From assembly GCA_965208425.1 (NCBI GenBank), contig OZ242335.1, positions 6,151,181 to 6,215,180 of the forward strand: a DNA stretch of 64,000 nucleotides, in the 5' to 3' direction. Shown here piece by piece: positions 2,566-62,405 of the stretch. Position numbers and translations under genes: made by a program. Source of the stretch: Candidatus Poribacteria bacterium. GTDB taxonomy: Bacteria; Poribacteria; WGA-4E; PCPOR2b. The notes beneath the pieces were generated by a model. It made no database searches, had not been told where the DNA came from, and saw only the letters and a list, made by a program, of their open reading frames with translations. Position 1 is the stretch's first letter. Every line of letters begins with the position of its first letter.

Positions 2566-2660
2566 GGCTCATATAAAAAGAAAGTGCAAAGCACGAAAAG
2601 AAACCGAGTTTTCAAGAAAAAACTCGGTTTCTTTGCACTAAATCTTAACATGAGCGAAAA
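2566..2660. mobile_element. A-family MITE-like element. It has terminal 'ggctcatataaaaag' and a core perfect inverted repeat GAAACCGAGTTTT-caagaa-AAAACTCGGTTTC (2600-2631) nested in gtgcaaag/ctttgcac. It lies downstream of the 472-aa ATPase gene and is a likely terminator.
   Basis: Nine related copies in the window (15948, 19459, 39320, 40873, 53295, 55918, 60352, 62994). The 53295-53388 copy shows both TIRs (ggctcatg.../...catatgagcc). Confidence 0.7.
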
Positions 2661-15837: not shown

Positions 15838-15950
15838 ATTATGGTAGATTTTAGGATTAATGAGACACTCCAAATCGGCGCAGTTGCAAACAGCGCCTAC
15901 CAAACATGGGGAGCGAAAGTGTTTATTTATTTTTTCAATTCACTATAAGA
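15838..15950. mobile_element. B-family MITE copy (inverted orientation: ...ttaggattaatgagacactccaaatcgg ... gcgaaagtgtttatttattttttcaattcactataag).
   Basis: Ten copies share the termini 'ctatagtggatcttagaattaatgagacactccaaa' and its reverse complement. Confidence 0.7.
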
Positions 15951-17194: not shown

Positions 17195-17280
17195 ACACCT
17201 GTCGCCCCGCTGGGGCTTGGCAGAAGTTTTATCGCCCTTCTATAAACATATCGCCCCGCTGGGGCTAAATACATGCTTCA
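17195..17280. repeat. D-family pair of hairpin units (gtcgccccgctggggc, about 47 bp apart).
   Basis: Sequence comparison. Confidence 0.55.
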
Positions 17281-17390: not shown

Positions 17391-17809
17391 CACACCCCCA
17401 TCTAAGTAGCAGCACCTTTTCGACTGGAACTTCGCTCAACTTGCCAGCACGAGCATGGAGAACGTAGGAGTTATGGTACATCGTTTTGAGGGTATCGACG
17501 GAGGAGATATCCACGCCACCGAGGCGATCAGTTTTGAGGTTTGGTTCAGCCATGATGGGCATCGGTGTTTCTCGCTTTCTGCGTGTATCATCGGGGCTAG
17601 GAAGCCCCTCCCACAATCGATAAAAATATATCACGCACTATGAACAGCGTCAAGGTTAAATCTACCATTGGCGGGAAAGGATGGTGCACTACCCGAAGGA
17701 GCGTCAGTGTTTCGTACTTGACCGCCTTCCAGGTATGTGATACAGTGATTTGGAATCTGCAGCCTCGTTGAAACGGTTGGTTCATTCATTCTTCTTACGT
17801 TCCACCCTT

Positions 17810-17960
17810 CGGATACACATGTCGCCCCGCTGGGGCTTTAGGATATTTGTTTATCCGTGTCCTATAAACATGTCGCCCCTCTGGGGCTAAATGAACCGCT
17901 GAACCAATGATTTTCACGTATCACGTTATTAACAGCTGCAAACTAGTGCTCAGTCAGATA
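17810..17960. repeat. D-family pair plus a ~95-bp extension that recurs inverted at 52640-52745.
   Basis: Sequence at 17850-17955 is about 90% identical to the reverse complement of 52640-52735. Confidence 0.6.
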
Positions 17961-17964
17961 AGTT

Positions 17965-18110
17965 TTACAATTATAGGACTTACGCATTCCAGATTGTAGT
18001 TGCCCGATTCATCGGGCGTATCGGGGCAGGTCCCGATTTATCGGGATCCTCGCTTCGCGGGAGATGCCCCTCCCACACACCCCTCAGTGCCCGCTAAAGG
18101 GGGCGAAAGG
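17965..18110. repeat. E-family composite repeat (ggacttacgcattccagatt ... cccgattcatcggg ... atcggggcagg..gatgcccctcccac).
   Basis: Related copies at 2524-2560, 17560-17625 and 59064-59215. Confidence 0.5.
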
Positions 18111-19458: not shown

Positions 19459-19612
19459 GGCTCATGTGAAAAGAAAGTGCAAGTCCCGATTCATCGGGAT
19501 TCCGCTGCCGTTCCGAGCATCCCGAGAATGGGGACTTGCGGAACACGAAGAGAAACCGAGTTTTCAAGAAAAAACTCGGTTTCTTTACACGATTTCTTAA
19601 CGTGAGCGAAGG
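19459..19612. mobile_element. A-family MITE copy (long form with cccgattcatcggg insertion) between convergent genes. Probable bidirectional terminator.
   Basis: Core 19552-19583 gaaaccgagttttcaagaaaaaactcggtttc. Confidence 0.7.
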
Positions 19613-27014: not shown

Positions 27015-27464
27015 ATGATGAACCGAATCAGTTTGAAGAATGTATGTGTTGGATTTATTTTTATCTGTATCCTAGGAATAGGTATATCATTGATAGCTAA
27101 AGCGCAACAGGAAGATACCTCCAAATACACTATCTTGGTTTTCGCCAAATTACACCTGACCCCCACTGGAGATCCGGAAGTCGCTGAGAAACTGATGAAG
27201 GAGAAGTTGTTATCAGCAGCAAAAGGAATTGAGGGGTTGAAGATTACCGCACTCAAGCGGATGCAACTTCCGGGACCAGAAGCACCCACGAACTCCAGTC
27301 AACCTGACTTTGTAATGATGGCTGAACTGACGGATGAGGCGGTCTTTGCCAAACTCATTACAGCAACACCCACAGCCTTAAAAGAATATGGTGAGGGGAT
27401 GAAGGCGCAAGCCGGCGCACCTCAATTTGAATTGTATCAAATTTTGGGTAGATCAACAGAGTGA
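27015..27464 (+). CDS. Small secreted or membrane-anchored protein of unknown function.
   Basis: Signal/TM segment VCVGFIFICILGIGISLIA and RBS gaggtg. Confidence 0.45.
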   Translation: MMNRISLKNVCVGFIFICILGIGISLIAKAQQEDTSKYTILVFAKLHLTPTGDPEVAEKLMKEKLLSAAKGIEGLKITALKRMQLPGPEAPTNSSQPDFVMMAELTDEAVFAKLITATPTALKEYGEGMKAQAGAPQFELYQILGRSTE

Positions 27465-27511
27465 ACTATACGCGATATGACACCCTCAAAATACGCATCA
27501 GGAGAGCATTG

Positions 27512-30500
27512 ATGAAACCAATCTTTCAACACATCTATCAAGTTCTGATAATCACTTTCGCGTTCGCTGTGTTACTCACAAGTTGTAGGCAGGAGGCTAC
27601 CCGCAAAGCGGATTGGGAAACCCATTTCACGGACCTGCACTTCGCCAACCCCAAGTACGGCTGGATTGTTGGGGAAAAAGGATTCATCATCCACACAAAC
27701 GATGGTGGCAAAACATGGAATCGGCAAGAAATAGAAACAGAGGAAGACCTTAAAGCTGTCTACTTTACAAACCTAAAATACGGCTGGGTAGTGGGGGACA
27801 ACGGTGTTATTGCTGCAACGGATGATGGCGGCAGATACTGGTATCTCCAGAAAAGCCGCACATCCGGTATGATCAGAGATGTAATCTTTGCCAACTCTAA
27901 CGAGGGCTGGGTTGTAGGGGAAGACAACTACGTAATTGCCACAAAGAATGGTGGAAAGACGTGGGAACGCCAAAATTATACGAGCAATTTCCCCCTCAAC
28001 GGTGTTTGGTTTATCAATGATCAGCATGGCTGGACTGTCGGCGAATATGAGCGTATCTTTCACACGGAGGATGGTGGAAAGACATGGCAAGAGCAGACTA
28101 CCCGTCACCAGTTCGCACGAACCCGATTGGTCAACGACAATCGACGTGTTATCTTCATAAATGAAAATGAAGGTTGGCTAGCAGGCACGGATGGTTCAAT
28201 CTTCCACACACAGAACGGTGGCGCTAAGTGGGATATGCAAGATAGCCGTATTCCGAATATTAACGGTCACGTCAAAGAAACCGTCAACGGTATCCACTTC
28301 GTCGACAACAAGCGTGGTTTGGCGGTCGCCGACATCGGGTTTATCACGTTCACCGAAGATGGCGGAGATAACTGGCGGCTGCTCGATAGCGTCACAGAAA
28401 ACAATCTGATGGCTGTTCAGTTCACGAGTCAGACCGAAGCATGGGCAGTCGGCTGGCACGGCACAATCGTACACTCTACTGATGGCGGACACACATGGAC
28501 GATGCGGAGTGGTACTACGGCAAACGACCTAGAAAACATCCAATTCACTTCGGAGGACCGTGCTATCGCTGTCGGACAACGTGGTGCTATCGTGGTCTCC
28601 GAGGATGGTGGACAGACATGGCAGGAGATCGATACCGATATATGGGATAATATTCGTAACATCTTTTTCATCTCCGACAAAGAGGGTTGGTTGATTGGCG
28701 AACGGAACATGATTGGTCATACCACCGATGGCGGACGGACATGGGAGCGTCAATACGCCGGCATGGGACATATGCTCAACGGTGTTTACTTTGTAACACC
28801 GAAGAAGGGCTGGGTGGTCGGCGAACTTGGTACAGTCTTGTTCACCGCTGACGGCGGTGCCTCGTGGGTTCCTCAGACTCCAACGGAATTTAACTCGCTC
28901 AAAGGTGCTTTCTTCCTGAATGAGAAAGAGGGCTGGGTGGTCGGTTGGCCCGGGGTTGTCTATCACACGAAGAATGGTGGGCTATCCTGGACATCACAGA
29001 CTTCTGGAACCTTCAACGAACTCTACGCAGTTCACTTTACAGATAGCAATAATGGTTGGGTCGTCGGTCAATTCGGTGAAATTCTGCGCACAAAGGATGG
29101 TGGCCAAACTTGGAGGTTTCAACCGAGCGGTGTTCAAGAAAACCTAAACAAGGTCTACCTCGCTGACACCTTGCACGGCATTATCGTTGGGGATAAGGGC
29201 ACAATTCTGACTACAACCAACGGTGGCGCGAAATGGGAAAAACAGGAAAGTGGCACAGAGAACGATCTCTTGGGATTCTCGCTCTCGCCAGAAGGGATGG
29301 TTGCGGTGGGACGCGGTGGGGTTGCAATGCACTATTCGATTGATCCAGAACAACTCCCTGTGACTTTGCCACCTATAGCCGAGATCATTGAAACACCCGA
29401 AATCCCTGAAGAGGAGGTAACCGTCGAGGAGGTAACCTACCATTGGGATATTATCCGTCGTGCCACATGGCAGACCGATTTTTCAGATACCTACTTTCTT
29501 GATGAGCACACCGGCTGGGCGGTTGGGGGAGGTGGCGTTATCGCTCACACGACCGATAGTGGAAAAACATGGCTGCCACAACACAGCAGCGTCGAGGCAG
29601 ATCTGTATCAGGTTATGTTTGTTGATAAATCCCACGGTTGGATTACCGGCAGCCGTATGCTGCTCCGCACCGAGGATGGCGGAAAAACATGGCAGGTAGT
29701 GAAAGGTGTTCTACAAAACTTCCGTCGCGTCAACACGATGCAATTTATCAACCCCAAAGAGGGTTGGCTAGGGGTCGGTGCCGCAGAGATGCTGCACACC
29801 GCCGACGGCGGACTGACGTGGGAACGTCAGCGAACCGGAATGAACGAGAACCCTATTGTCGACCTGCATTTCATCAACGGTCTGGAAGGTTGGGCGGTCA
29901 TGCTAGAACGCCTCGACGGTGGAGCAAGGGAAGGTGGAGTTATCCTGCACACCACCGATGGAGGCGAATACTGGAAGGTCCTTGACAACACCAACCAACC
30001 CGCCATTGCCGTCCATTTTGCAGACTCAAAATCGGGGTGGGTCGTGTTGAGAAACGGTGTATCGATCGCAACCCATGACGGAGGCGCAACTTGGAAGCGG
30101 GTCCTGTCCGATTCAGATAGCGGCTGGCCACCCCGGCGAATTGGTCGCATCACCTTCCAAGACCATCAAACAGCGTGGGCGCTTGGAGGAGATGGTAGAC
30201 TCTTCATCACACGCAACAGCGGTCAAACATGGAAAGGGGCGAACGTTCCACAGCATGAAAGTTCGGTCAACTCCGGAATTGCATCCGAAGAGGACACCGA
30301 TTGGCTCGCGCTCTGGCTGGAAGAGGAAGGAGAATCAGGCAATCGTGCCGACGACCAATCCAACAACACCAACACTTCAGAATGGGATCAGGATTTCGCA
30401 GAAGAATTCCAAACAGAAATGACAGATAGACGTCAACGCGCCGGACGTTTCACGCCAGAGGGCGATCTCGGTGAGGAAAATGGGGATTTTTCCAACGAAA

Positions 30501-31579
30501 CGCAAAGACGGCGGAGGCCTGCCCAACAAGACCGCCCACAACCACGACGAAACAGGAGACGCGGAAATCGTTTAATTAACAACATCCATTTCGTTAATGA
30601 CCAAATTGCGTGGGCGGCCGGTGAAGCTGGGCATATCTTCCACACCACAAACGGTGGAAAGACATGGGAACGACAACTCGGTGAGCAACTGGACGATTTC
30701 CGAGATGTACTGTTTCTTAATGACCAACAGGGCTGGATTGCTGGGGATAACGGACTTTTGATAGAAACACAAGATAGTGGAGCTACATGGACTACGCTGC
30801 AAAGCGGATCGCGGCAGCGATTAATTGGTGTTCACTTCCCCAGTCTCGACCCAAAATGGGGCTGGGCGATGCAGCGCGACGGCACAGTTCTCTACACAAC
30901 TGATGGCTCAAACTGGTCGGCTGGGCAGACACCGATGCGCCCCGGTTTCATGGAAGATGACCCACCGAGACCTTTTGCAATCAACGACGTAGCCTTTAGA
31001 CAGTTCTCCGAAGGCTGGGCAGCTGGTGGCGACGGACAGATTATACACAATCAGGATGGTGGACCCATCTGGACGCCACAACGGACATCAACCGGGAAAG
31101 ACCTTTACGGGATCGAGATGAGGTACGCACCGCTTGGATGGGCGGTGGGCGATGACGGCATCGTTCAACGCACCATCAACGGCGGCGGCTACTGGAAATT
31201 CCATGAAACAGATACGGGCTACAGCCTGTATGATGTCTCATTCACTACCAAGCGTAAGGGTTGGGCGGTTGGAGCCTATGGCATCATTCTCCGAACCATC
31301 GGCGGTGGATTTAAGTGGGAACCCTTGTCCAGTGGCGTTACAGCAGACCTTTACAGTGTTACTGTACTGTCTGACGATGAAATCTACGCTGTCGGTGCCA
31401 AAGGTACTATTGTCCGTTCAACGGATGGCGGAAAAACATGGGAGCAAGAGCATACTGATATTGGCAATGACTTGTACCGGATTGTCCGTGCGAAGGAAGG
31501 GGATACGCTCTGGGTTGTTGGACAATGGGGTGTCGTGCTGCGTCGAAAGATTGATGACACAAAGGTGTCAATGCGGTAG
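27512..31579 (+). CDS. Giant lipoprotein of tandem Ycf48/BNR-like beta-propeller repeats, with about 26 Asp-box D-G-G-x-T-W blades and a ~100-aa charged low-complexity linker (aa ~940-1040).
   Basis: Start at 27512 follows aggaga, and the lipobox LLTSC is present. The blade pattern GWxVG..G.I..T.DGGKTW recurs. Confidence 0.8.
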   Translation: MKPIFQHIYQVLIITFAFAVLLTSCRQEATRKADWETHFTDLHFANPKYGWIVGEKGFIIHTNDGGKTWNRQEIETEEDLKAVYFTNLKYGWVVGDNGVIAATDDGGRYWYLQKSRTSGMIRDVIFANSNEGWVVGEDNYVIATKNGGKTWERQNYTSNFPLNGVWFINDQHGWTVGEYERIFHTEDGGKTWQEQTTRHQFARTRLVNDNRRVIFINENEGWLAGTDGSIFHTQNGGAKWDMQDSRIPNINGHVKETVNGIHFVDNKRGLAVADIGFITFTEDGGDNWRLLDSVTENNLMAVQFTSQTEAWAVGWHGTIVHSTDGGHTWTMRSGTTANDLENIQFTSEDRAIAVGQRGAIVVSEDGGQTWQEIDTDIWDNIRNIFFISDKEGWLIGERNMIGHTTDGGRTWERQYAGMGHMLNGVYFVTPKKGWVVGELGTVLFTADGGASWVPQTPTEFNSLKGAFFLNEKEGWVVGWPGVVYHTKNGGLSWTSQTSGTFNELYAVHFTDSNNGWVVGQFGEILRTKDGGQTWRFQPSGVQENLNKVYLADTLHGIIVGDKGTILTTTNGGAKWEKQESGTENDLLGFSLSPEGMVAVGRGGVAMHYSIDPEQLPVTLPPIAEIIETPEIPEEEVTVEEVTYHWDIIRRATWQTDFSDTYFLDEHTGWAVGGGGVIAHTTDSGKTWLPQHSSVEADLYQVMFVDKSHGWITGSRMLLRTEDGGKTWQVVKGVLQNFRRVNTMQFINPKEGWLGVGAAEMLHTADGGLTWERQRTGMNENPIVDLHFINGLEGWAVMLERLDGGAREGGVILHTTDGGEYWKVLDNTNQPAIAVHFADSKSGWVVLRNGVSIATHDGGATWKRVLSDSDSGWPPRRIGRITFQDHQTAWALGGDGRLFITRNSGQTWKGANVPQHESSVNSGIASEEDTDWLALWLEEEGESGNRADDQSNNTNTSEWDQDFAEEFQTEMTDRRQRAGRFTPEGDLGEENGDFSNETQRRRRPAQQDRPQPRRNRRRGNRLINNIHFVNDQIAWAAGEAGHIFHTTNGGKTWERQLGEQLDDFRDVLFLNDQQGWIAGDNGLLIETQDSGATWTTLQSGSRQRLIGVHFPSLDPKWGWAMQRDGTVLYTTDGSNWSAGQTPMRPGFMEDDPPRPFAINDVAFRQFSEGWAAGGDGQIIHNQDGGPIWTPQRTSTGKDLYGIEMRYAPLGWAVGDDGIVQRTINGGGYWKFHETDTGYSLYDVSFTTKRKGWAVGAYGIILRTIGGGFKWEPLSSGVTADLYSVTVLSDDEIYAVGAKGTIVRSTDGGKTWEQEHTDIGNDLYRIVRAKEGDTLWVVGQWGVVLRRKIDDTKVSMR

Positions 31580-39319: not shown

Positions 39320-39415
39320 GCTCATGTGGAAGAAACTGTGCTAAGAAACCAAGTTTTGCAGAAAAAACTCGGTTTCTCTGAACTGTTCTGCACTTTCTTT
39401 TGATATGGGCGAACC
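39320..39415. mobile_element. A-family MITE copy in inverted orientation.
   Basis: agaaaccaagttttgcagaaaaaactcggtttc plus ..catgtgg/..atatgggcgaa ends. Confidence 0.6.
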
Positions 39416-40872: not shown

Positions 40873-40965
40873 ACGCTCATATAAAACGAAAGTGCAAAGC
40901 ACGAAGAGAAACCAAGTTTTCAAGAAAAAACTCGGTTTCTTTGCACTAAATCTTAACATGAATGA
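40873..40965. mobile_element. A-family MITE between convergent genes. Probable terminator.
   Basis: About 90% identical to the copy at 2566-2660. Confidence 0.7.
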
Positions 40966-45541: not shown

Positions 45542-45665
45542 AATTAATGAAACACTCCCAGTGCACAACCAACCCCCTAAATCCCCCAACCCCCTAAATC
45601 CCCCAACCCCCTAAATCCCCCTTGTCAGGGGGACTTGGGAAACTCAGGGGGACTTGGGAAGCTGC
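45526..45665. mobile_element. B-family MITE variant carrying a 17-bp tandem repeat (caaccccctaaatcccc x3) and duplicated cagggggacttgggaa units.
   Basis: Seen directly in the sequence. Confidence 0.65.
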
Positions 45666-52603: not shown

Positions 52604-52639
52604 GAGCCTAAGTTGCGACCTAAAATCCCAACAGGATAA

Positions 52640-52745
52640 TAACCAATGGTGCTAGTTTGCAGCTGTTGATAACGTGAAACGTAAAAATCATTAGTTCAGT
52701 GGTTCATTTAGCCCCAGCAGGGCGACAGGTCTATAGTACACGAAT
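52640..52745. repeat. D-family extended repeat (inverted copy of 17850-17955).
   Basis: Sequence comparison. Confidence 0.6.
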
Positions 52746-52914
52746 AAACAAATACCCGAAAGCCCCAAATACCCGGCGGGTTATCCATCAATTCTTGGCT
52801 CATTGAGCCTAGCACCTTATGCAACATTCCGGGTATTTTCGACATGTGTATCCGAAGGGTGGAATTTGACATACTCCGCAAACCTAAAGGCTTGGGATTC
52901 TTAAAAGCCCGCTT

Positions 52915-53290
52915 CCGATAGAAGAGCTAATTGTGCGATCAACAACGATGCGTGTGATCAAACCACGTCTTACTTCGTCTCCTGCAATGGACGATGCCCC
53001 GCCCACTCCCCCGCCTGTTAGGCAAAGCCTAACAGGCATTGGGGAACTTTGGCGAAATGGAAAGCACCGCACCGTCGCCGCCGGGAGGCTGACACTCGGT
53101 TGTGGATTTGACCCCGACTCACCGTGAGGCAATGCTTCGATTTCTGATGCGTATTATACCAGAAACGAACACAAAAAGTGTAAGGTAGATTACACTTTTT
53201 TACTTTTTGGCAACTTTAATGCTAAAGCCGTCTGTATAGGCTTCGCCCCAACTGCTCCAAACATAAATGTTGGGGTTTTAGACCTAAAGG
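52915..53290 (+). ncRNA. Candidate small RNA or 5' leader element X1. It has a conserved 5' block (ctaattgtgcgatcaacaacgatgcg...gacgatgccccgccc), a 10-bp perfect hairpin (cctgttaggc-aaa-gcctaacagg), and a 3' hairpin + T-run (ccaaacataaatgttggggtttt). It is paralogous to 57420-57650.
   Basis: Nucleotide-level similarity to X2 without protein-level conservation of the overlapping ORFs. Confidence 0.3.
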
Positions 53291-53294
53291 TTTT

Positions 53295-53388
53295 GGCTCA
53301 TGTAAAGAAATCGTGCAACAGCAACCAAGTTTTCAAGAAAAAACTCGGTTTCTCTTCATGCTCTGCACCCTCTTTTTATATGAGCCAA
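53295..53388. mobile_element. A-family MITE, the copy with both terminal inverted repeats visible (ggctcatgtaaag.../...ctctttttatatgagcc).
   Basis: Seen directly in the sequence. Confidence 0.7.
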
Positions 53389-53845
53389 GGTTTTTTCGAT
53401 AAGGTGTATATAAAATTCTGCTATACACATTGCGCTCCTCCCCGATACATCGGAATGCAAAACTGGAGCGAAAGCCTGAACACTTCAACTGGAACAGAAA
53501 GAAGATGCCCTTGACTCAATTCTGTTGATGCAACATACCCTAGTATTGGTGTAGCATTTTTGCGACGACGGTGTAGCACTATTCCCACAACCTCCTCGTG
53601 AATAAGCCCCGCCCTTTAAGATCACAATCCACCCCAAAAGCAAACCCAAAGTCCCCCAGAGAAAGAATTTGCCGAAAAACTCAGTTTTTTGTACAATCTC
53701 TTTAGGCGATCTGAGATAACAGTGGTATTGAAATTGCGCGTACTTGATGAACAGAGTGCATTGTATTGGGTAACGATACACGTCAAATCCTATCCGGCTC
53801 TATTGAGATGTTCATAGAGCCTAACGGGCAGAATAGGAGGAAATC

Positions 53846-54985
53846 ATGTTACACGTCTTGCGCCGTTCCACACTGTTCTTCACATTATTCGCTCTGGGGA
53901 CTGCATGGATTGGGTGCACACAAGAGAACGCTCCGGTCAACATACCGGATGCCAACCTCCGCACTGTCATTGAGCGTGCCCTTGACAAGCCTGAGGGTGC
54001 CACAATCACAAGCACTGCCATGGCAACCTTGACGGATCTCGGAGGAGATAGGGCTGATATTCGCGAGTTAACCGGCCTTGAGTTTGCCACCAACCTGATA
54101 AGTCTACACCTTAGGTCCAATCAACTATCGGACCTGTCACCCCTTGCGGGCCTAACAAATCTGAAACTCCTAGATATCAGTGAGAGTAGTGTAACAGATC
54201 TCTCGCTCCTCGCAGGATTAACAAACCTAGAGTCCCTCAATATCAGCAACAGCTCGCTATCAGACCTATCGCCGCTCGCAGGATTAACGAATTTGGACTC
54301 CTTGAGTATCAGCGATAGCGGTATATCAGACATATCATCTCTCGCAGGATTAAAAAAACTGAAATGGCTAAATCTGTTCGAGAACCAAATCTCAGACCTA
54401 TCACCTCTTGCTGGATTAAAAAATCTGGAAGAGTTGGAACTTGACGTTAACTGTGTCTCGGACCTGTCACCCTTGGCGGGATTGGTAAATTTGCAGAGAT
54501 TATACCTTACCGTTAACAGGGTATCAGATATATCGCCACTGGCGGGATTAACCAATCTGAGGTCAATTTGGCTCATGGATAACCGCGTTTCAGATTTGTC
54601 GCCCTTGGCACAACTTTCCCAACTTGAAACTTTGCTACTTGCTGACAACAACGTATCAGATATATCATCTCTCCCAAAATTAACCAATCTGAAACTCCTC
54701 CAACTTACCGATAATCAGATCTCGGACCTCTCGCCGATAGTGGAATTAACAAACCTAGAACAACTGGGGCTTTACGGTAACTACGTCTCGGATCCGTCGC
54801 CCTTGGTACGGCTAACCAATCTGAAAGAGCTGGGACTTTCCGCCAATCGTGTGTCAGATTTATCATCCCTACTGGAATTAACCAATTTGAAGGAGCTAGA
54901 TGTTCTATCGAACCCCTTGAGCTCAAAAACAGTCACCGTTGACGTGCCGATCCTCAAAGCCAAAGGTGTTTCTGTCAGGCATTAG
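53846..54985 (+). CDS. Secreted leucine-rich-repeat protein (about 22-residue LxxLSPLAGLTNLxxLxLxxNxISD repeats).
   Basis: Signal peptide, RBS ggagg, LRR periodicity. Confidence 0.8.
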   Translation: MLHVLRRSTLFFTLFALGTAWIGCTQENAPVNIPDANLRTVIERALDKPEGATITSTAMATLTDLGGDRADIRELTGLEFATNLISLHLRSNQLSDLSPLAGLTNLKLLDISESSVTDLSLLAGLTNLESLNISNSSLSDLSPLAGLTNLDSLSISDSGISDISSLAGLKKLKWLNLFENQISDLSPLAGLKNLEELELDVNCVSDLSPLAGLVNLQRLYLTVNRVSDISPLAGLTNLRSIWLMDNRVSDLSPLAQLSQLETLLLADNNVSDISSLPKLTNLKLLQLTDNQISDLSPIVELTNLEQLGLYGNYVSDPSPLVRLTNLKELGLSANRVSDLSSLLELTNLKELDVLSNPLSSKTVTVDVPILKAKGVSVRH

Positions 54986-55017
54986 TATCGGTAAATCCTA
55001 TTGATTGGAGGAAAATC

Positions 55018-55911
55018 ATGTCGCACTTCTTGCGTCGTTCAACACCGTTCCTCATGCTACTTGTTCTCGGAGTTATATGGGGCGGGTGTGCGAAAGCGAT
55101 TCTTTCTGTCCAACCGGTCAATATACCGGATGCGAATCTCCGCACTGCCATTGAAGATGCCTTACACAAGCCTGCGGGTGCCACAATCACAAATGCTGAC
55201 ATGGCGACTTTGACGAGTCTTGAACCGGGTTGGGGCGATATCCGTGAGCTAACCGGTCTTGAATTTGCGGTCAATCTCACGTACGTGCGCCTAGGCCACA
55301 ACCAGATATCGGATCTGTCGCCCTTCGCTGGATTGACAAAACTGCAATTCCTATATATCGAAGAAAACAGGATAACAGACCTATCACCTCTTACGGGACT
55401 AACAAAACTGAGAGAACTGGATCTCTACGGCAACGAAATATCGGATCTATCGCCTCTCGCTGGATTGATAAATCTGAGATTCTTGAGTATTAGTGATAGC
55501 AAGGTATCCGACCTTTCACCACTCATAGAATTAACAAACCTAGAAAATCTAGGTATCGACGGCAGCCAGATATCGGATCTATCGCCTCTCGCTGGATTGA
55601 CAAAGCTAGCGTTCCTGAGTATTAACGATAGCCGGGTATCAGACCTGTCGCCCCTTGCAGAATTAACACATCTAAGGGAGCTAGGTCTTTACGGAAACGA
55701 AATATCAGATCTTTCACCTCTCGCTGGATTAACAAAGCTAGAAGGCCTAGGACTTAATGTTAACCGCGTATCGGACCTGTCGCCTTTGGTCGGATTAACC
55801 AATTTGAGAAGTCTGCACGTGCAATCAAACCCGCTGAATCTAAAGACAATCGCCGTTGAGTTGCCGTTTCTTGAAGCCAAAGGTGTTCATGTCTGGCATT
55901 CGCATCAATAA
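55018..55911 (+). CDS. Secreted LRR protein, tandem paralog of 53846-54985.
   Basis: Shared N-terminal block NIPDANLRTAIEDALHKPAGATIT and the same LRR consensus. Confidence 0.8.
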   Translation: MSHFLRRSTPFLMLLVLGVIWGGCAKAILSVQPVNIPDANLRTAIEDALHKPAGATITNADMATLTSLEPGWGDIRELTGLEFAVNLTYVRLGHNQISDLSPFAGLTKLQFLYIEENRITDLSPLTGLTKLRELDLYGNEISDLSPLAGLINLRFLSISDSKVSDLSPLIELTNLENLGIDGSQISDLSPLAGLTKLAFLSINDSRVSDLSPLAELTHLRELGLYGNEISDLSPLAGLTKLEGLGLNVNRVSDLSPLVGLTNLRSLHVQSNPLNLKTIAVELPFLEAKGVHVWHSHQ

Positions 55912-55917
55912 TCCTGT

Positions 55918-56040
55918 GGCTCATGTAAAAAGAAAGTGCAAGTCCCGATTCATCGGGATTCCGCCTTGCGGAACACGAAGAGAAACCGAGTTTTAAAGAA
56001 AAAACTCGGTTTCTTTGCACTAAATCTGAACATGGGCGAA
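55918..56040. mobile_element. A-family MITE, long form. Likely terminator after the LRR gene.
   Basis: Near-identical to 19459-19612. Confidence 0.7.
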
Positions 56041-56078
56041 GATAGATTCTATTTTTCATTTCCGAAGGAGATTCAAAT

Positions 56079-57140
56079 ATGATTGGTTTCAAGCGCATCA
56101 TGATATTCGTATTTGGTTTTGTTTTCCTCGTTTTATCAATTGTCTCCGCCGTTGCACAGGTTGATACTCCCGCTGTCTGCCTGATTGATGACCATCCGGG
56201 CATCCTCGAATCAGACGCACAGACCGCAGCGATGCTGGTGTGTGATGCGCTGCGTAAGCAGGGTATATCGGTCAGCGATCCCGTTTACGAAGCACCCACT
56301 TCAGCGAATGCGTATCGCGTTATTTTACGCCGGTTAGGTGAGAAGATTATCGTGCGCCTGAGCCAGGAAAATCCCATCGGCACAATTATCATCGAGCGGC
56401 AAATTATATTGGCAAATATCGAAGAGATGATCCCAGCAGCACCGAGACTGGTTGACGCACTTGTTCACGACAAGCCGATCGATGATACGGTCGATATGGA
56501 AACCGTCACTGAACAGGAGGCTCGCGAACTCAGGAAGATATCGGGTGAGTCCCTGTGGCATGTAGGAATCTTTGGAACCTTTGTTCCCGGCACAGACATA
56601 TCCGCAGAACCCGGCTTTGAGTACGGTTGGTCTTATCAGACACCATCGTACGCTGTGGGAACCGAGTTCCGAACAAGTGGACGCGATACGTTTGAGGAGT
56701 CTGTGGGAACCGGGATTCAGGATAGTGACCCCGAAGGTTTTTCCTTCTTCGCTTGGTCAATCGGTGGACGCTACTTCTTTAACAAACAGAATATTTCACC
56801 CTATGTGGGCGGCGGACTCGCCATCGTTAACACCAGCTATGAAACGACGGTAAGGAGACGCAAAGAGTGGTTCGGTTCTGCAGAAAGGTATAGTCAGTTG
56901 TGGGGAGAGGAGTGGGAGTGGACCGATGAATCTGAGTCAGATACCGGTTTGGGCACCTATGCCATCGTTGGAATAGAGGCACTGCGCCTCACTCAGAGTC
57001 GCTTAAATCTTGAACTACGAGTAGATAGACCGTTATTTAAGCTGCCAAGCCAAGATATAATGCCGATAACATTTGGTATCTCCTTTTCTCGGAATTATGT
57101 TCCCGGCGGCTCGGGCTGCTTGTCGGGTTGCCTGTTTTGA
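56079..57140 (+). CDS. Secreted protein of unknown function with a possible C-terminal beta-barrel-like domain.
   Basis: Signal peptide IMIFVFGFVFLVLSIVSAVA, RBS ggag. Confidence 0.45.
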   Translation: MIGFKRIMIFVFGFVFLVLSIVSAVAQVDTPAVCLIDDHPGILESDAQTAAMLVCDALRKQGISVSDPVYEAPTSANAYRVILRRLGEKIIVRLSQENPIGTIIIERQIILANIEEMIPAAPRLVDALVHDKPIDDTVDMETVTEQEARELRKISGESLWHVGIFGTFVPGTDISAEPGFEYGWSYQTPSYAVGTEFRTSGRDTFEESVGTGIQDSDPEGFSFFAWSIGGRYFFNKQNISPYVGGGLAIVNTSYETTVRRRKEWFGSAERYSQLWGEEWEWTDESESDTGLGTYAIVGIEALRLTQSRLNLELRVDRPLFKLPSQDIMPITFGISFSRNYVPGGSGCLSGCLF

Positions 57141-57141
57141 T

Positions 57142-57247
57142 TTATAGTGGATTTTAGAATTAATGAGACACTCCAAACCGGTGCGGTTGGAAACCGCACC
57201 TACCGGGCGGGTGAAAGTGTCTATCGATTTTTTGAATTTACTATAAG
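57142..57247. mobile_element. B-family MITE copy.
   Basis: Sequence comparison. Confidence 0.7.
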
Positions 57248-57419
57248 TCCCCGCTTGAATCAGATTTCCCCTCAACGAGTTATCCCTTCTGCAATGAATT
57301 GGCTGAGTCAATCTTAGTCCATCTAGCCCGCACTTTAGACACTCGGCATTTTTTTTGTAAATAGTTTTTGACGTACTCCAAAAGCTGAAGCATTTGGATT
57401 CTTGTTAGGAATCCACTTT

Positions 57420-57650
57420 CTACTTTCTAATTGTGCGGTCAACGACGCTGCACCCCGTCGGGTGTCTTAATGCGTCTCTCGCAAGGGACAACGCCCTGCC
57501 CCTATACCAGCGTCTATATCCTGCTCCCCGGTGCCGGTAACTGTAGAAAGTATACTATATTTGTTCAGGAACATCAAACAAAAAATGCGCTAAAGCATGG
57601 GTGTATCCCAAAGGTAAACCTTGGGGTTTTACCCCTAAAGGAATTTTTAT
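57420..57650 (+). ncRNA. Candidate small RNA or 5' leader element X2. It has the conserved 5' block ctaattgtgcggtcaacgacgctgc...gacaacgccctgccc and a 3' hairpin + T-run (cccaaaggtaaaccttggggtttt). It is paralogous to X1.
   Basis: About 70% identity over ~85 nt with X1, plus a shared upstream 'ggattctt' segment and a shared 3' terminator-like end. Confidence 0.3.
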
Positions 57651-57839
57651 GATAAAAAAAACTTGACAAACGTTTTGCAGCAATTTATAATACTATAAAA
57701 TCTACATGCGAATGAGTCTCAATATCATTCATTAGCGAGGTCAATCGGGCAAAAGATGCCCGTTTTTATTTCAGACTATATTGAAATTGAGACTCTATAT
57801 CAACAACTCCGAGGGTTAGAATTGCGAATCTGCTGTTGT

Positions 57840-59063
57840 GTTATGTTTCTGTTTCTGATGGTTCAAATCGTACCCGCTGAATCCAAACGGTTTAGTGTCT
57901 CCGGTTACGGAGTAATCAATTACGCTAACTTCTATTGGGAGACCGATCCAGAGCGACGTGCCCACATTGACGTTGAACGGCTTGTCGTTGCGCCGAAGTT
58001 CCGGATGAGTGAGACTATCCGGCTTGAAGCGGAACTCGAGTTTGAGCACGGTGGGACCGGCACCACAATGGAGTTTGACAAATTTGAGGAATTTGGCGAA
58101 TTTGAGACAGAAATCGAAAAAGGCGGCGAGGTCATCGTAGAGAAACTCGCCGCGGTCTTTGAGGTTCGCCCGACACTTAACTTTCGGATAGGTCACATCA
58201 TCGTGCCGGTCGGCTTAACCGCCAAACGGCATCGTCCCCAGCACTACTTCACAACCACCCGCCCTGAATCTGAATCAAATCTGATTCCAACCATTTGGCA
58301 TGAAAATGGGATTGAGCTATTCGGCAAATTCGGTGCACTCAGTTATCAAGCGCAAGTTGTCAACGGCTTGGATTCCACCGGCTTCAGTTCGCGTCGTTGG
58401 GTTTCCAGCGGTCATCAACTGCGTTTTGAAACTGCCAATGCGGAAGATTTCGCGCTGGTCGGTCGTGTCGATTATACAGTTATGGATGGAGCAGTTCTCG
58501 GTGTCTCTGGCTATTACGGAGACAGCGCGGACAACCGTCCGAAACCGGACTTCGATCTCGATGCTCATGTTTCAATTGTTGACCTGCACGGTTTTTATGA
58601 GGTCGGTGCGGTGAAGGTTCGTGGACTGTTCCTTTACGGAACGCTCGAAAATTCGGAACTGATCTCCAAAACCAATCGAAATCTATCAAACAACCTGAAC
58701 GTCAAGCGGACACCCGTCGGCAGCCAAGCCGTTGGGGGATACCTCGAAGTCGGTTACAATGTGCTCACGTTTTTCAAATCATCGTTGAACACAGAAGCAG
58801 GGCTTGATTTTTTCGTTCGCTACGACAACTACGATACGATGGCTGAGGTCCAGGGCGATATCTTTGATAATCCGCGTTGGGAACGGCAGACGTGGACACT
58901 TGGCCTCAATTATCACCCGCATCCACAACTTGTTTTTAAGGGACATTATTCCGCACGGGTATTGGGTTCCAAACCTGTAGAGGTATTGGACACCATACCC
59001 ATATTGGACACCGAATTTGAGGATGAACACACCCTCGCACTCGGCTTCGGGTTTCAATACTAA
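57840..59063 (+). CDS. Outer-membrane beta-barrel porin-like protein. The start was chosen at the signal-peptide Met. The ORF-track start is 57756.
   Basis: Signal peptide MFLFLMVQIVPAES, alternating amphipathic strands, C-terminal ...LGFGFQY aromatic end. Confidence 0.5.
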   Translation, partial: VMFLFLMVQIVPAESKRFSVSGYGVINYANFYWETDPERRAHIDVERLVVAPKFRMSETIRLEAELEFEHGGTGTTMEFDKFEEFGEFETEIEKGGEVIVEKLAAVFEVRPTLNFRIGHIIVPVGLTAKRHRPQHYFTTTRPESESNLIPTIWHENGIELFGKFGALSYQAQVVNGLDSTGFSSRRWVSSGHQLRFETANAEDFALVGRVDYTVMDGAVLGVSGYYGDSADNRPKPDFDLDAHVSIVDLHGFYEVGAVKVRGLFLYGTLENSELISKTNRNLSNNLNVKRTPVGSQAVGGYLEVGYNVLTFFKSSLNTEAGLDFFVRYDNYDTMAEVQGDIFDNPRWERQTWTLGLNYHPHPQLVFKGHYSARVLGSKPVEVLDTIPILDTEFEDEHTLALGFGFQY

Positions 59064-59215
59064 CAGGACTTACCCACTTCAGTTCGTAGTAGCGCAATTC
59101 GTTACGCGCATATCGGGGCAGGGATGCCCCTCCCACGCCTAGTGGCGATAAATCGCCGAACTACAAGACACTAAACTTTTAACTGCGTAAGTCCTAACTA
59201 ATTTAACTTCAAACT
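59064..59215. repeat. E-family composite repeat with inverted ends (ggacttacccacttcagtt ... aactgcgtaagtcc).
   Basis: Seen directly in the sequence. Confidence 0.55.
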
Positions 59216-59231
59216 AAAAAGGAGGAATCCA

Positions 59232-60335
59232 GTGAGATTAAATCAGTATTTGGCAAAATTCTTTTGCTGTACCCTATCGACCCTTCTGGTCCTATCAATT
59301 GGTCTCATCGGTTGCAGCCTCACCGGCTGTGGCAGCGACGAAGAAGATGATGTTACTACTGTAAGTGAAAGTGAAGAAGAAGCGTTTGATGCCAGCCCTA
59401 TCTTGGACAACTTCGCCGATGCAATCGTAACCGCAACCTACACCGATTTGGACAACAAAGCAGGTTCTCTGCTAGGCGCTGTCCAAGCGTTGGGAGCTGC
59501 TACCAATCAAGCGCATTTAGAACTAGCACAAGATGCTTGGAAAGCAGCCCGGATACCGTGGGAACAGAGTGAAGCGTTTCTGTTCGGTCCTGTTGATACA
59601 CAGGGTCTTGACCCGGCACTCGATAGCTGGCCCGTCAATCGAGTTGACCTTGATGGCGTTCTTGGGAGTGGGCAAGCGTTGACTGAGGCGTCAATCGACG
59701 CGCTTGAAGATACGCTGAAAGGGTTTCATACCATCGAGTATCTCCTCTTCCGTGAGGGCAATCAGCGCAAAGCTGAAGATATTACCCCCCGTGAGTTGGA
59801 ATACCTCGCTGCATCAACGGAAAATCTGAAAGCAAAAACCGCTCAACTAGCTAACGCATGGGCTGCGTCAGGCGAAAATTATGCTGGAGAGATCGCCAAC
59901 GCCGGCACCACCAGCACTATTTACAAATCACAGAAAGACGCGATGCAGGAAATGGTCAACGGCATGATTGTCATCGCTGATGAAGTCGCGAACGGTAAGA
60001 TCTCCGACCCGTTCAATGAGAAGGATACAACCCTTGTCGAGTCGCAGTTCAGTTTCAACTCGATTAGCGACTTCCAAAATAATATCCGCGGAATCCAAAC
60101 TGTCTACGCGGAGCTTAGCAAATTTGTAAACGGTGCGAACGCTGACCTGGACGCAAGGTTCAAAACCGAAGTTCAGACTGCTATTAACGCCATCGGTGCA
60201 ATTCCAGACCCGTTCCGTGATTCAATCACTGCGAATCGTGGTGCTGTCCAAGCAGCAATCGATGCGGTTAGCACGGTTCAAACAACACTGGAAAACGATA
60301 TCTTGACGTTGGTGCTAGAGAGCGATTTTAACTAG
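59232..60335 (+). CDS. Imelysin (peptidase M75 / IrpA-like) lipoprotein.
   Basis: Lipobox LIGCSL and GxHxxE motif KGFHTIEYLLF. Confidence 0.7.
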   Translation: MRLNQYLAKFFCCTLSTLLVLSIGLIGCSLTGCGSDEEDDVTTVSESEEEAFDASPILDNFADAIVTATYTDLDNKAGSLLGAVQALGAATNQAHLELAQDAWKAARIPWEQSEAFLFGPVDTQGLDPALDSWPVNRVDLDGVLGSGQALTEASIDALEDTLKGFHTIEYLLFREGNQRKAEDITPRELEYLAASTENLKAKTAQLANAWAASGENYAGEIANAGTTSTIYKSQKDAMQEMVNGMIVIADEVANGKISDPFNEKDTTLVESQFSFNSISDFQNNIRGIQTVYAELSKFVNGANADLDARFKTEVQTAINAIGAIPDPFRDSITANRGAVQAAIDAVSTVQTTLENDILTLVLESDFN

Positions 60336-60351
60336 CGCGGACTAATGCATG

Positions 60352-60395
60352 ACAGAGAAACCGAGTTTTTCCAAAAAACTCGGTTTCTTTACACG
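60352..60395. mobile_element. A-family hairpin core only (gaaaccgagtttttccaaaaaactcggtttc). Terminator-like.
   Basis: Seen directly in the sequence. Confidence 0.6.
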
Positions 60396-60412
60396 GTTTA
60401 GAGGTAACAGCA

Positions 60413-60997
60413 GTGATACCGAAAAACGCCCCCGATAAGATCGGGATTCAGAGCAACTTTCCAAACCTGTTTGGGCGCACCAGTTGGGGAACTGTAACCT
60501 GTGAGTTTGAATGCCTCAATGAGATGCCACCTCTCAACTTGATTAGCAATGTTAACCTTGTTCCGTTCAAAGGAGATCGGTGGTTAATCCTTCGCTTACA
60601 AACAGGGGAATGGGAAATTCCGGGTGGTACGTTGGAGCCGGGCGAAAGCTACTCGGATGCAATAAGTCGTGAGTTAATTGAAGAGGCTGGAGCACGTCTG
60701 ATAACCTTTGAACCGCTCGGTGCTTGGCACTGTTTTTCGACTGCCCCAAAACCGTATCGTCCGTATCTGCCACATCCCGAATTTTATCGGCTTGTGGGTT
60801 ACGGAGCGGTAGAAATCACCGGCAGCCCTGAAAATCCTGAGAGTGGCGAGCAGGTAGTAAGCGTAGATTTCGTCCCTATTGAGGAAGCCATTCAGCGATT
60901 TCGTGACATAAATCGGTTTGAGTTAGCAGAGCTATATCAGTTAGCGGCAAGAATGCGTAACGCCAGAAGTGAAAGCAGGCGAGAGATTGGCGTTTGA
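60413..60997 (+). CDS. NUDIX hydrolase with an N-terminal extension (GTG start in the ORF model).
   Basis: Nudix box GGTLEPGESYSDAISRELIEEAG. Confidence 0.55.
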   Translation: MIPKNAPDKIGIQSNFPNLFGRTSWGTVTCEFECLNEMPPLNLISNVNLVPFKGDRWLILRLQTGEWEIPGGTLEPGESYSDAISRELIEEAGARLITFEPLGAWHCFSTAPKPYRPYLPHPEFYRLVGYGAVEITGSPENPESGEQVVSVDFVPIEEAIQRFRDINRFELAELYQLAARMRNARSESRREIGV

Positions 60998-61001
60998 AAT
61001 C

Positions 61002-62405
61002 ATGAGATCAAATCAGCCTTCATACATGCTATTCTTTATAATAATATTACTTTGTATCTCGATTTCTGCTTGTGATTCGGAGGATCCGACCGATCCGTCG
61101 AAGATGGATTATTCAAATAAAGCGCATTTAGGCGGCGAAACGACGGTTTTTGACGCGACGAGTCATGCATTTTCAACACCTGCGCCGAACCTCTCAGCAG
61201 ACGGACTAGCAAAGCATCTCGATGGCGATGTCGAATTTGAGGCGGTTTTCGTCACGGTTCCGGCGGAAGTTAATCCGGGGCTCGGTCCTGTTTACAATAA
61301 TATCGCGTGCATCAACTGTCACGCGAGAGATGGGCGGGGACGTGCACCGACATCGGGTGAAAAACTTACATCAATGCTTTTCCGCGTGAGCCTCCCAAAC
61401 CCGGAGGGCGACGTTACACATGGACCTGTGCCAGTTCCCGGTTTTGGTACACAACTCAATAATCGCGCGATCTTCGGTGTACCCCCGGAGGGAACAGTAA
61501 CGATCAATTACACCGAAGGTGAGCTCACGACAAGTGACGGGGCGAAGGTGTATCTCCGCACACCTAGCTACGAAATCAAAGATGCGTACCAACCGTTGCC
61601 AGACAATGTTGAACTCTCGCCCCGTGTTGCACCGGTTGTATTCGGCTTAGGGTTACTTGAAGCGATACCTGAATCAACAATCCTCGCCTTGGCGGACGAA
61701 GACGATCAGGATGGCGATGGAATTTCAGGGAAAGCGAATTATGTCTGGGATGTCCAGAAGAATGGATCGAGCCTCGGTCGATTCGGGTGGAAAGCGAATC
61801 AACCGACACTGATCCAACAGGTCGCTGCCGCCTATCACGACGACATAGGCATTACGACCTCGCTGTTACCGATAGAGAGTTCGGATGGGCAAAGGCAATA
61901 CGACGGACGGGGTGACGATCCAGAACTCAGTGATGAGATTTTGGATGTGGTTACATTTTATGTCCAAACCCTCGCTGTACCTGCTCGACGCGACCTTGAC
62001 AACCCAGTCGTTCAACGTGGCGAGGAACTTTTTGAGAGCGCGGGTTGTTCCAGTTGCCATATTCCAACATTGGAGACAGGATCGTTATCGGATGTGCCGG
62101 AGGTCTCCAACCAGACGATTCATCCGTACACCGATCTGTTGTTGCACGACATGGGTCCGGGGTTGGCAGACTATCGCCCTGATTTCCTAGCGAGTGGGTC
62201 AGAATGGCGTACACCGCCCCTGTGGGGTATCGGGTTGCTTAAAGTGGTCAATGGGCACACCAACCTTCTCCACGATGGTAGGGCAAGAGGATTACTAGAA
62301 GCAATTCTGTGGCACGGTGGGGAAGCAGAACAATCACGTGAGGCAGTTCAGCAGATGTCCGCAAGCGACAGAGACGCGCTCATCACTTTTCTGGAATCAT
62401 TATAG
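61002..62405 (+). CDS. Di-heme cytochrome c DUF1111-family protein (putative thiol oxidoreductase/peroxidase), lipoprotein. The ORF-track start at 60969 overlaps the NUDIX gene.
   Basis: Two CxxCH motifs (CINCH, CSSCH) and the lipobox ISISAC. Confidence 0.7.
   Translation: MRSNQPSYMLFFIIILLCISISACDSEDPTDPSKMDYSNKAHLGGETTVFDATSHAFSTPAPNLSADGLAKHLDGDVEFEAVFVTVPAEVNPGLGPVYNNIACINCHARDGRGRAPTSGEKLTSMLFRVSLPNPEGDVTHGPVPVPGFGTQLNNRAIFGVPPEGTVTINYTEGELTTSDGAKVYLRTPSYEIKDAYQPLPDNVELSPRVAPVVFGLGLLEAIPESTILALADEDDQDGDGISGKANYVWDVQKNGSSLGRFGWKANQPTLIQQVAAAYHDDIGITTSLLPIESSDGQRQYDGRGDDPELSDEILDVVTFYVQTLAVPARRDLDNPVVQRGEELFESAGCSSCHIPTLETGSLSDVPEVSNQTIHPYTDLLLHDMGPGLADYRPDFLASGSEWRTPPLWGIGLLKVVNGHTNLLHDGRARGLLEAILWHGGEAEQSREAVQQMSASDRDALITFLESL

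Follow-up and report, generated by a model that had tools for sequence, protein, structure and literature searches.

Two related elements in the window

The DNA analyzed here is a stretch of 64,000 nucleotides from a Candidatus Poribacteria bacterium (contig OZ242335.1, positions 6,151,181 to 6,215,180; hereafter, the window), in which two related elements, X1 and X2, lie on either side of two genes for leucine-rich-repeat (LRR) proteins and a gene for a 353-aa protein without a Pfam match. Beyond X2 lies a gene (57756-59063) whose homologues are outer-membrane beta-barrel proteins, the named ones being from Candidatus Poribacteria. A preliminary description of this DNA had taken X1 and X2 for candidate small-RNA or leader elements of the LRR genes and of the porin-like gene, respectively. 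We report that X1 and X2 are not leaders of the neighboring secreted-protein genes; they belong to a new family of a known kind of mobile element, very probably a palindrome-associated transposable element (PATE) of the IS200/IS605 type, IS608-like and non-autonomous, of which they are diverged copies. The active, or "top," strand of both elements is the minus strand of the window, and their features are listed in Table 1.

The paralogous block that first drew attention to the two elements is real. Three degenerate patterns derived from the wording of the preliminary description each match the 64-kb window exactly twice, with no match expected from shuffled sequences: CTAATTGTGCGRTCAACRACGMTGC at 52927-52951 and 57427-57451, GTCTTAMTKCGTCTCYYGCAAKGGACRAYGCCC at 52967-52999 and 57464-57496, and TTGGGGTTTTANNCCTAAAGG at 53270-53290 and 57621-57641. 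The coordinates given earlier for X1 were about 10 nt off. Pairwise alignment showed that the similarity is also wider than the block, extending from TTGACRTACTCC (52866 in X1 and 57368 in X2) to just past CCTAAAGG...ATG (53301 and 57650). In the core, X1 and X2 are 69% identical if the variable hairpin is counted and about 80% identical if it is left out, and X1 holds about 150 internal bases more than X2. On the minus strand, X1 reads 5'-ATGAGCC...GGAGTATGTCAA-3' and X2 reads 5'-ATAAAAATTCC...GGAGTACGTCAA-3'. The shared segment GGATTCTT (52895-52902 and 57396-57403), the hairpin followed by a T-run in both elements, and the perfect 10-bp stem of X1 are all present as described before; the stem lies inside a segment of about 130 nt that occurs once among the sequences compared.

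The element family encodes no protein. The ORFs (open reading frames) that overlap X1 and X2 exist, and the peptides they specify are dissimilar; between the two elements, each of the six frames is either broken or without similarity, and protein searches with the elements returned one spurious 75-aa ORF and nothing else. Conservation is at the level of nucleic acid, as had been proposed. Besides, a template/variable repeat pair of a diversity-generating retroelement was considered and rejected, because the differences between X1 and X2 are not adenine specific.

Table 1. Features of X1 and X2 in the window
Feature	Position	Strand	Remark
X1, complete copy	52866-53301	-	436 nt; ends by alignment with the eight other copies
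X1 right end	52866-52926	-	hairpins, then terminal GGAGTATGTCAA
X1 conserved RNA core	52927-53006	-	hairpin H1 and three-way junction (P2, P3, P4)
X1-specific perfect 10-bp stem	53014-53036		inside the segment that X2-type copies lack
X1 extended -10 box	53153-53161	-	TGGTATAAT
X1 11-bp hairpin and T-run	53173-53200	-	just upstream of the internal -10 box; read from the sequence
X1 left-end subterminal hairpin	53255-53279	-	hairpin and T-run if read on the plus strand
X1 target motif TTAC	53302-53305	-	immediately 5' of the left end; boundary ambiguous by one base
X2, complete copy	57368-57650	-	283 nt; clean insertion relative to L001, L002, and L024
X2 right-end hairpin	57368-57397	-	CCAAAUGC-UUCA-GCUUUUGG, then 10 nt ending in TCAA; read from the sequence
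X2 right-end-proximal hairpin	57396-57414	-	GGATTCC/GGAATCC; contains the ggattctt segment noted earlier
X2 conserved RNA core	57427-57503	-	hairpin H1 and three-way junction (P2, P3, P4)
X2 promoter-like site	57549-57577	-	TTGATG-17-TATACT; 9 of 12 consensus positions
X2 left-end subterminal hairpin	57607-57630	-	hairpin and T-run if read on the plus strand
X2 target motif TTATC	57651-57655	-	immediately 5' of the left end

A dispersed family in Candidatus Poribacteria

Seven further copies, for which a search had been suggested in the preliminary description, were found, all in Candidatus Poribacteria assemblies. A 22-nt core pattern gave 16 matches in genome contigs (one genome per species), six of which are true copies from two Candidatus Poribacteria chromosomes (four in OZ242315.1 and two in OZ220744.1); the seventh, on a JGI contig, was reached via a spuriously called ORF. 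With the two in the window, the total is nine. Five of the remaining matches are in Planctomycetota, and a motif shared across the Planctomycetes-Verrucomicrobia-Chlamydiae (PVC) superphylum was rejected because these five are a coding coincidence; in our own translation they read D-S-I-V-R-S-T-T-M-R, which we take to be the amidophosphoribosyltransferase (purF) motif. The last five non-Poribacteria matches arose by chance.

The X2-type copies are 80 to 99.6% identical over their full length. Under R1, a model of the covariation-supported RNA scaffold of the family, X1 scored 112 bits and X2 scored 169 bits. A search with R1 over all collected loci (designated L plus a number) gave no new copy, with weak matches only at 17979-18088 of the window (E = 0.24) and at 6182-6220 of L012 (E = 0.88). 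Two metagenome scans for copies or an autonomous parent gave 0 matches and 1 chance match, a viral scan for copies gave none, and blastn against phage and plasmid collections gave none either. An 18-nt left-end segment (AGCAGTTGGGGCGAAGYCT, top strand) is common only to X1 (about 53236-53254) and the copy in L012 (about 2075-2115), and the copy in L017 joins an X1-like left-end hairpin to an X2-like core; the subfamilies are therefore mosaic. In a literature search we found no paper naming Poribacteria together with IS200/IS605-type elements or PATEs.

The flanks are unrelated at all nine copies. Genes near the other copies include recA, hisB, phoX, hydantoinase genes, and genes for a DUF1028 protein and a glyoxalase, and therefore there is no link between the family and secreted-protein genes.

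Element ends and insertion sites

All nine copies terminate on the minus strand in GGAGTAYGTCAA and then pass into unrelated sequence. At the other end, TTATC precedes all eight X2-type copies and TTAC precedes X1, while the copies have nothing in common farther upstream or in their 3' flanks. Comparison of the two ends (ATAAATTCC... and ...GTACGTCAA) revealed no inverted terminal repeats, and no duplicated flank was found at any of the nine copies. The left-end subterminal hairpin, located 22 to 24 nt from the cleavage site, is 92% paired across copies with three compensatory pairs (GG/CC, CA/TG, and GCG/CGC variants); another candidate hairpin at this end, CCTTTAGGGG/CCCCAAGG, was dropped in favor of this downstream one because it is not conserved in X1 or L019. 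At the right end, X2 reads as DNA CCAAATGC-TTCA-GCTTTTGG followed by AGTACGTCAA, i.e., 10 nt ending in TCAA. In the adjacent right-end-proximal hairpin, GGATTC/GAATCC is swapped wholesale for GTCCCGAT/ATCGGGAC in the four OZ242315.1 copies, and five of the six pairs are compensatory.

Sites without the element are available for both X1 and X2. Three loci from relatives, L001 (90% protein identity), L002, and L024, are syntenic with the X2 region and keep the outer-membrane-protein gene and its promoter, and the position of X2 is empty in each. The empty sites read TTTTTTTTAC|AAATT, and the conserved promoter follows directly; in full, they run ...AATTTGTAAAAAAAAC-TTGACA, and the window has 283 more bases between TTT and GATAAAAAAAAC. 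Model R1 found no copy in these three loci nor in L021 to L023, which likewise surround orthologues. For X1, the joined flanks give TTCTTTAC|ATTCCACCCTTCGGATACACATGTCG, and a paralogous repeat at 17792-17825, resembling repetitive extragenic palindromic (REP) sequences, reads TTCTTACGTTCCACCCTTCGGATACACATGTCG without interruption, which confirms the boundaries of X1. X1 is in fact inserted into an array of REP-like tandem units around the hairpin GCCCCGCTGGGGC, which occur at 2380-2474, 17230-17274, 17801-17896, and 52700-52865; the uninterrupted paralogue of this array lies at 17792-17946. The empty sites thus join both flanks directly, with a sole discrepancy of one base: the occupied X2 site has TTATC, whereas the three empty sites have TTAC. 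The left boundary of X2 can hence be placed only to within one base (TTAT|C... or TTATC|...), and excision of X2 would be expected to leave the donor joint TTAT(C)|AAACTATT.

These sites bear directly on whether the two elements could be plus-strand small RNAs or 5' leaders with intrinsic terminators that regulate the LRR and porin-like genes. That reading draws on the hairpin and T-run in both elements, on a conserved and structured block, and on a TTGACR at the plus-strand start. However, the outer-membrane-protein gene has its own perfect promoter (TTGACA-17-TATAAT, 57663-57691) downstream of X2 and hence beyond the supposed terminator, and L001, L002, and L024 keep this promoter and the gene without X2, which in the window sits 12 bp upstream of the -35 box, inside an A-tract. 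The position of both elements upstream of these genes is literally true, but it is misleading, since 545 nt, with a further repeat in them, separate X1 from the first LRR gene and since the gene behind X2 is served by that promoter. Moreover, the seven other copies adjoin unrelated genes, no -10 box follows TTGACR at 16 to 18 nt, and the supposed terminator is the element's own subterminal left-end hairpin, covarying among copies. We consider regulation of these genes by plus-strand leaders very improbable. A known repeat family had been named at the outset as the explanation that would overturn the leader claim, and in kind this is what was found, namely, a mobile repeat family of known type.

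The organization of the ends is that of IS608 from Helicobacter pylori. At its left end IS608 is cleaved on the 3' side of TTAC, and at its right end the cut is at a TCAA located 10 nt 3' of the hairpin; imperfect palindromes lie in subterminal position on its top strand, and its donor joint is scarless (PMC3201880); members of the IS200/IS605 family that lack genes are known as PATEs (PMC10055086). X1 and X2 were filed as IS200/IS605-type PATEs on the strength of their ends, target motif, hairpins, scarless sites, and gene-less state. As in that family, there are no terminal inverted repeats, no target duplications, and scarless empty sites; insertion is on one strand, 3' of a TTAC-like motif; the right end is a TCAA that follows a subterminal hairpin by 10 nt; imperfect hairpins lie at both ends on the same strand; and, as for PATEs, copies are multiple and gene-less. 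The family differs from IS608 in that X2-type copies are at TTATC (or TTAT) rather than TTAC and that the left-end hairpin is 22 to 24 nt instead of 19 nt from the cleavage site. Besides, X1 and X2 have no sequence similarity to the records of the phage and plasmid collections, and their host phylum, Poribacteria, is a further difference. They share with IS200 of Salmonella and Yersinia the compact ends and a terminal hairpin that can double as a terminator shielding the element or its neighbors; IS200, however, encodes TnpA, and the left-end hairpin of X1 and X2 is terminator-like on the bottom strand.

We also weighed repeats of another kind: X1 and X2 might be attachment sites that bound an LRR island, an IS110-type element with a bridge RNA, an IS91-like element, or REP sequences with a REP-associated tyrosine transposase (RAYT). 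X1 and X2 are direct repeats that bracket the LRR genes, the region from the DUF58 gene to the outer-membrane-protein gene is variable among relatives, and the window is rich in REP-like hairpin repeats, all of which would suit such a repeat. On the other hand, LRR genes in L001 and L024 occur without an X copy and the other copies are solitary, for which reason attachment-site repeats of the LRR island were rejected. The flanks of the nine copies share only 4 to 5 nt on one side, whereas a common target of about 14 nt would be expected for an IS110 element and insertion at GTTC/CTTG for IS91; both were rejected on target length and motif. REP units, finally, are unlike copies of 270 to 440 nt with an internal promoter and a three-way junction. 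As a group, these alternatives appear highly unlikely.

Internal promoter-like site and RNA scaffold

Inside each element, on the minus strand, a -10 box lies at the equivalent place in all nine copies (exactly TATAMT in eight and TATAGT in L009), and in the X2-type copies it is preceded by TTGATG, 17 nt upstream. The distance from the -10 box to the right end is 174 to 181 nt, or 287 nt in X1. A small hairpin and T-run precede the -10 box on the same strand; in X1, where the hairpin has 11 bp, it looks like an insulating terminator, as read from the sequence.

In the stretch that separates the -10 box from the right end, hairpin H1, a three-way junction (P2, P3, and P4), and the right-end-proximal hairpin are supported by RNAalifold and by explicit counts of pairs. 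This scaffold has 29 pairs, with 98.7% of cells paired compared with 37 to 48% when the partners are slid, and 11 pairs are changed on both sides; the observed values were reached by 0 of 500 shuffles. The compensatory changes among copies bear out the conserved secondary structure that had been suspected. Two long-range helices proposed by RNAalifold (columns 2-5/150-153 and 131-137/143-149) are poorly kept in X1 and were not used. The terminal GUCAA can pair with UUGAC of the junction in all eight sequences, with only a one-sided C>U change.

The strand can be read from the G-U pairs. Owing to 28 G-U cells, 228 of 231 cells are canonical on the minus strand versus 201 of 231 on the plus strand, where 27 cells turn into C-A mismatches. 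Structure and promoter therefore both indicate the minus strand, and the plus-strand reading of the preliminary description is probably wrong. A comparison with Rfam, which had been recommended there, gave no family: with Rfam 15, no match reached the gathering score anywhere in the window, IS605-associated motifs included, and a search of the region and of each element alone at E values up to 10 returned only subthreshold chance matches. A cyanobacterial small RNA or riboswitch was also rejected, given a Poribacteria-like organism and the lack of an Rfam match.

Proposed mechanism and possible role as a guide RNA

We propose that the top strand is excised and inserted as single-stranded DNA, by "peel and paste," through the action of a Y1 transposase (TnpA) whose gene lies at another site of the genome. 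Each copy would moreover carry a self-contained RNA gene on the same strand, consisting of a terminator-like hairpin, a conserved -10 box, and a structured scaffold of about 140 to 170 nt, or more in X1, that extends to the right end and beyond it. The role of this RNA would most likely be that of a TnpB-type omega RNA, with the flanking DNA just beyond GTCAA as the guide; cleavage of the vacated donor site (TTAYC and its flank) by a TnpB nuclease acting in trans would be followed by recombination that restores the element. The adjacent LRR and outer-membrane-protein genes would be affected only incidentally: plus-strand transcription could end at the left-end hairpin and T-run, and the internal promoter would direct transcription outward on the antisense strand.

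The omega-RNA reading was adopted because of the layout, in which promoter, scaffold, right end, and flank as guide follow one another. PATEs "often encode omega RNAs," with TnpB acting in trans (PMC10055086). The omega RNA of ISDra2 TnpB has a conserved pseudoknot, in which the bases immediately 5' of the guide pair with a stretch located about 100 nt upstream (PMC10097598). The X1/X2 scaffold resembles such RNAs (also called reRNAs) in that a structured scaffold of about 120 to 170 nt abuts the right end with the flank as would-be guide, in its several stems, and in a possible pseudoknot made by the last 5 nt before the guide. The elements further agree with omega-RNA PATEs in having no nuclease of their own, so that action would be in trans. 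Omega-RNA-bearing PATEs have reportedly been described by Meers et al. in Geobacillus stearothermophilus. In contrast to TnpB omega RNAs, the scaffold has its own promoter-like -10 box and upstream terminator-like hairpin and is not embedded in the 3' end of tnpB, and no protein ORF runs over it. We rate the assignment of the internal RNA as a TnpB guide RNA as a nearly even call that does not quite tip in its favor, and for the family as a whole we lean toward the combined reading, in which X1 and X2 are IS608-like PATE copies with a minus-strand TnpB-type guide RNA.

Several observations weigh against this combination. Neither a TnpA nor a TnpB gene was found among the ORFs tested in the 64-kb window or in the 8- to 21-kb loci around the other copies, and tblastn with ISDra2 TnpB and IS608 TnpA over the window and the loci then collected found none, a difference from both IS608 and the TnpB omega RNAs. 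Of 5.8 billion database proteins, none runs over the core in a minus-strand frame (concatenated six-peptide query from X1 and X2); an autonomous parent with a tnpB ORF over the scaffold therefore remains undetected. Overlap between tnpB and its omega RNA is not obligatory (PMC10097598), and the missing overlapping protein is therefore a weak negative; a remnant of the TnpB C terminus was also sought in X1 and X2, and the translations show nothing convincing. The scaffold matches no Rfam model, as described above. The internal promoter is a consensus match only, with no -35 box in X1, and the UUGAC/GUCAA pseudoknot is without compensatory change. With regard to the ends, the occupied X2 site differs by one base from the three empty orthologous sites, and the IS608 rule that relates the four nucleotides 5' of each hairpin to the cleavage site was not consistently confirmed across copies. 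In our alignment, the tetranucleotide 5' of the left-end hairpin is AAAA, compared with AAAG for TTAC in IS608, and that 5' of the right-end hairpin is GAAT in four copies and GGGA in the OZ242315.1 copies.

A PATE without a guide RNA is also to be considered, in which the structure is a passenger small RNA with a regulatory role for host or element, such as an antisense or outward transcript, or a single-stranded DNA structure for transposition or replication. The failure to find TnpB in the window, the loci, or the protein search would fit this, as would the lack of likeness to described omega-RNA families, and covariation alone cannot separate RNA from folding of the top strand as single-stranded DNA. 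However, what TnpA requires is confined to the subterminal hairpins and the guide tetranucleotides close to them, in IS608 some 50 nt at each end (PMC3201880), whereas the covarying three-way junction is situated 60 to 140 nt inward from the right end. The junction follows a conserved, correctly oriented -10 box and includes conserved G-U pairs, and the order of scaffold, right end, and flank is that of TnpB omega RNAs (PMC10097598, PMC10055086). On balance, a guide-free PATE seems unlikely. It is more doubtful still that the RNA partners with an undescribed RNA-guided effector in Poribacteria or is a domesticated dispersed regulatory RNA, e.g., one guiding a nuclease-dead TnpB-like repressor; this thought is prompted by a fold outside the described guide-RNA families and by the lack of an overlapping nuclease ORF in the protein search.

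Other repeats and neighboring genes

Perfect-hairpin repeats of about 42 nt (GAAACCGAGTTTTCAAGAAAAAACTCGGTTTC) occur in seven intergenic copies in the window (2596-2637, 19548-19589, 39341-39382, 40904-40945, 53317-53358, 55978-56019, and 60352-60393), one of which abuts the left-end flank of X1; this repeat family may be a REP-like or miniature inverted-repeat transposable element (MITE)-like element or a bidirectional terminator. A second dispersed repeat of about 67 nt (...TAGAATTAATGAGACACTCCAAACCGGTGCGGTTGnAAACCGCACCTACCGG) is found in both orientations at 15838, 21379, 23763, 35104, 36493, 44318, 48444, and 57141, and the last copy (57141-57207) stands directly after the 353-aa gene, 160 nt from X2. 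Tandem repeats are also present: 102-nt units at 5350-6363 within an ORF for a repeat protein (4162-6453, minus strand), 123-nt-periodic repeats at 27647-30793 within a 1,372-aa ORF for another repeat protein (27461-31579, plus strand), and a 17-nt repeat, CCCCCTAAATCCCCCAA, at 45554-45621.

The region 57756-62405 encodes the outer-membrane beta-barrel protein, an imelysin (Peptidase_M75), a NUDIX protein, and a di-haem oxidoreductase (DHOR), and this cluster is conserved, being found also in L001, L002, L021, and L024. In relatives it is followed by ferritin, Rieske, ABM, and TonB-receptor genes. The cluster suggests an iron-acquisition locus. The interval between the DUF58 gene and this cluster is a variable island (52604-57755 in the window, 1888-10000 in L001, 1-10000 in L002, and 2639-10000 in L024), containing LRR genes in the window, with HicB and HNH genes added in L001 and L024, and the defense genes DndB, DUF4007, and BrxC/PglY in L002.

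Implications

These results remove a false lead, in that no conserved leader or small-RNA regulon for secreted-protein genes exists at X1 and X2. In its place stands a PATE family, new and well delimited, from the uncultured sponge-symbiont phylum Candidatus Poribacteria, with target motif, ends, and RNA scaffold defined. The copies mark recent insertions and are usable as strain markers. If the guide-RNA reading is true, the family would provide an omega-RNA cassette that is compact, acts in trans by nature, and has a promoter of its own, and it would help to find the cognate nuclease and to annotate Poribacteria genomes.

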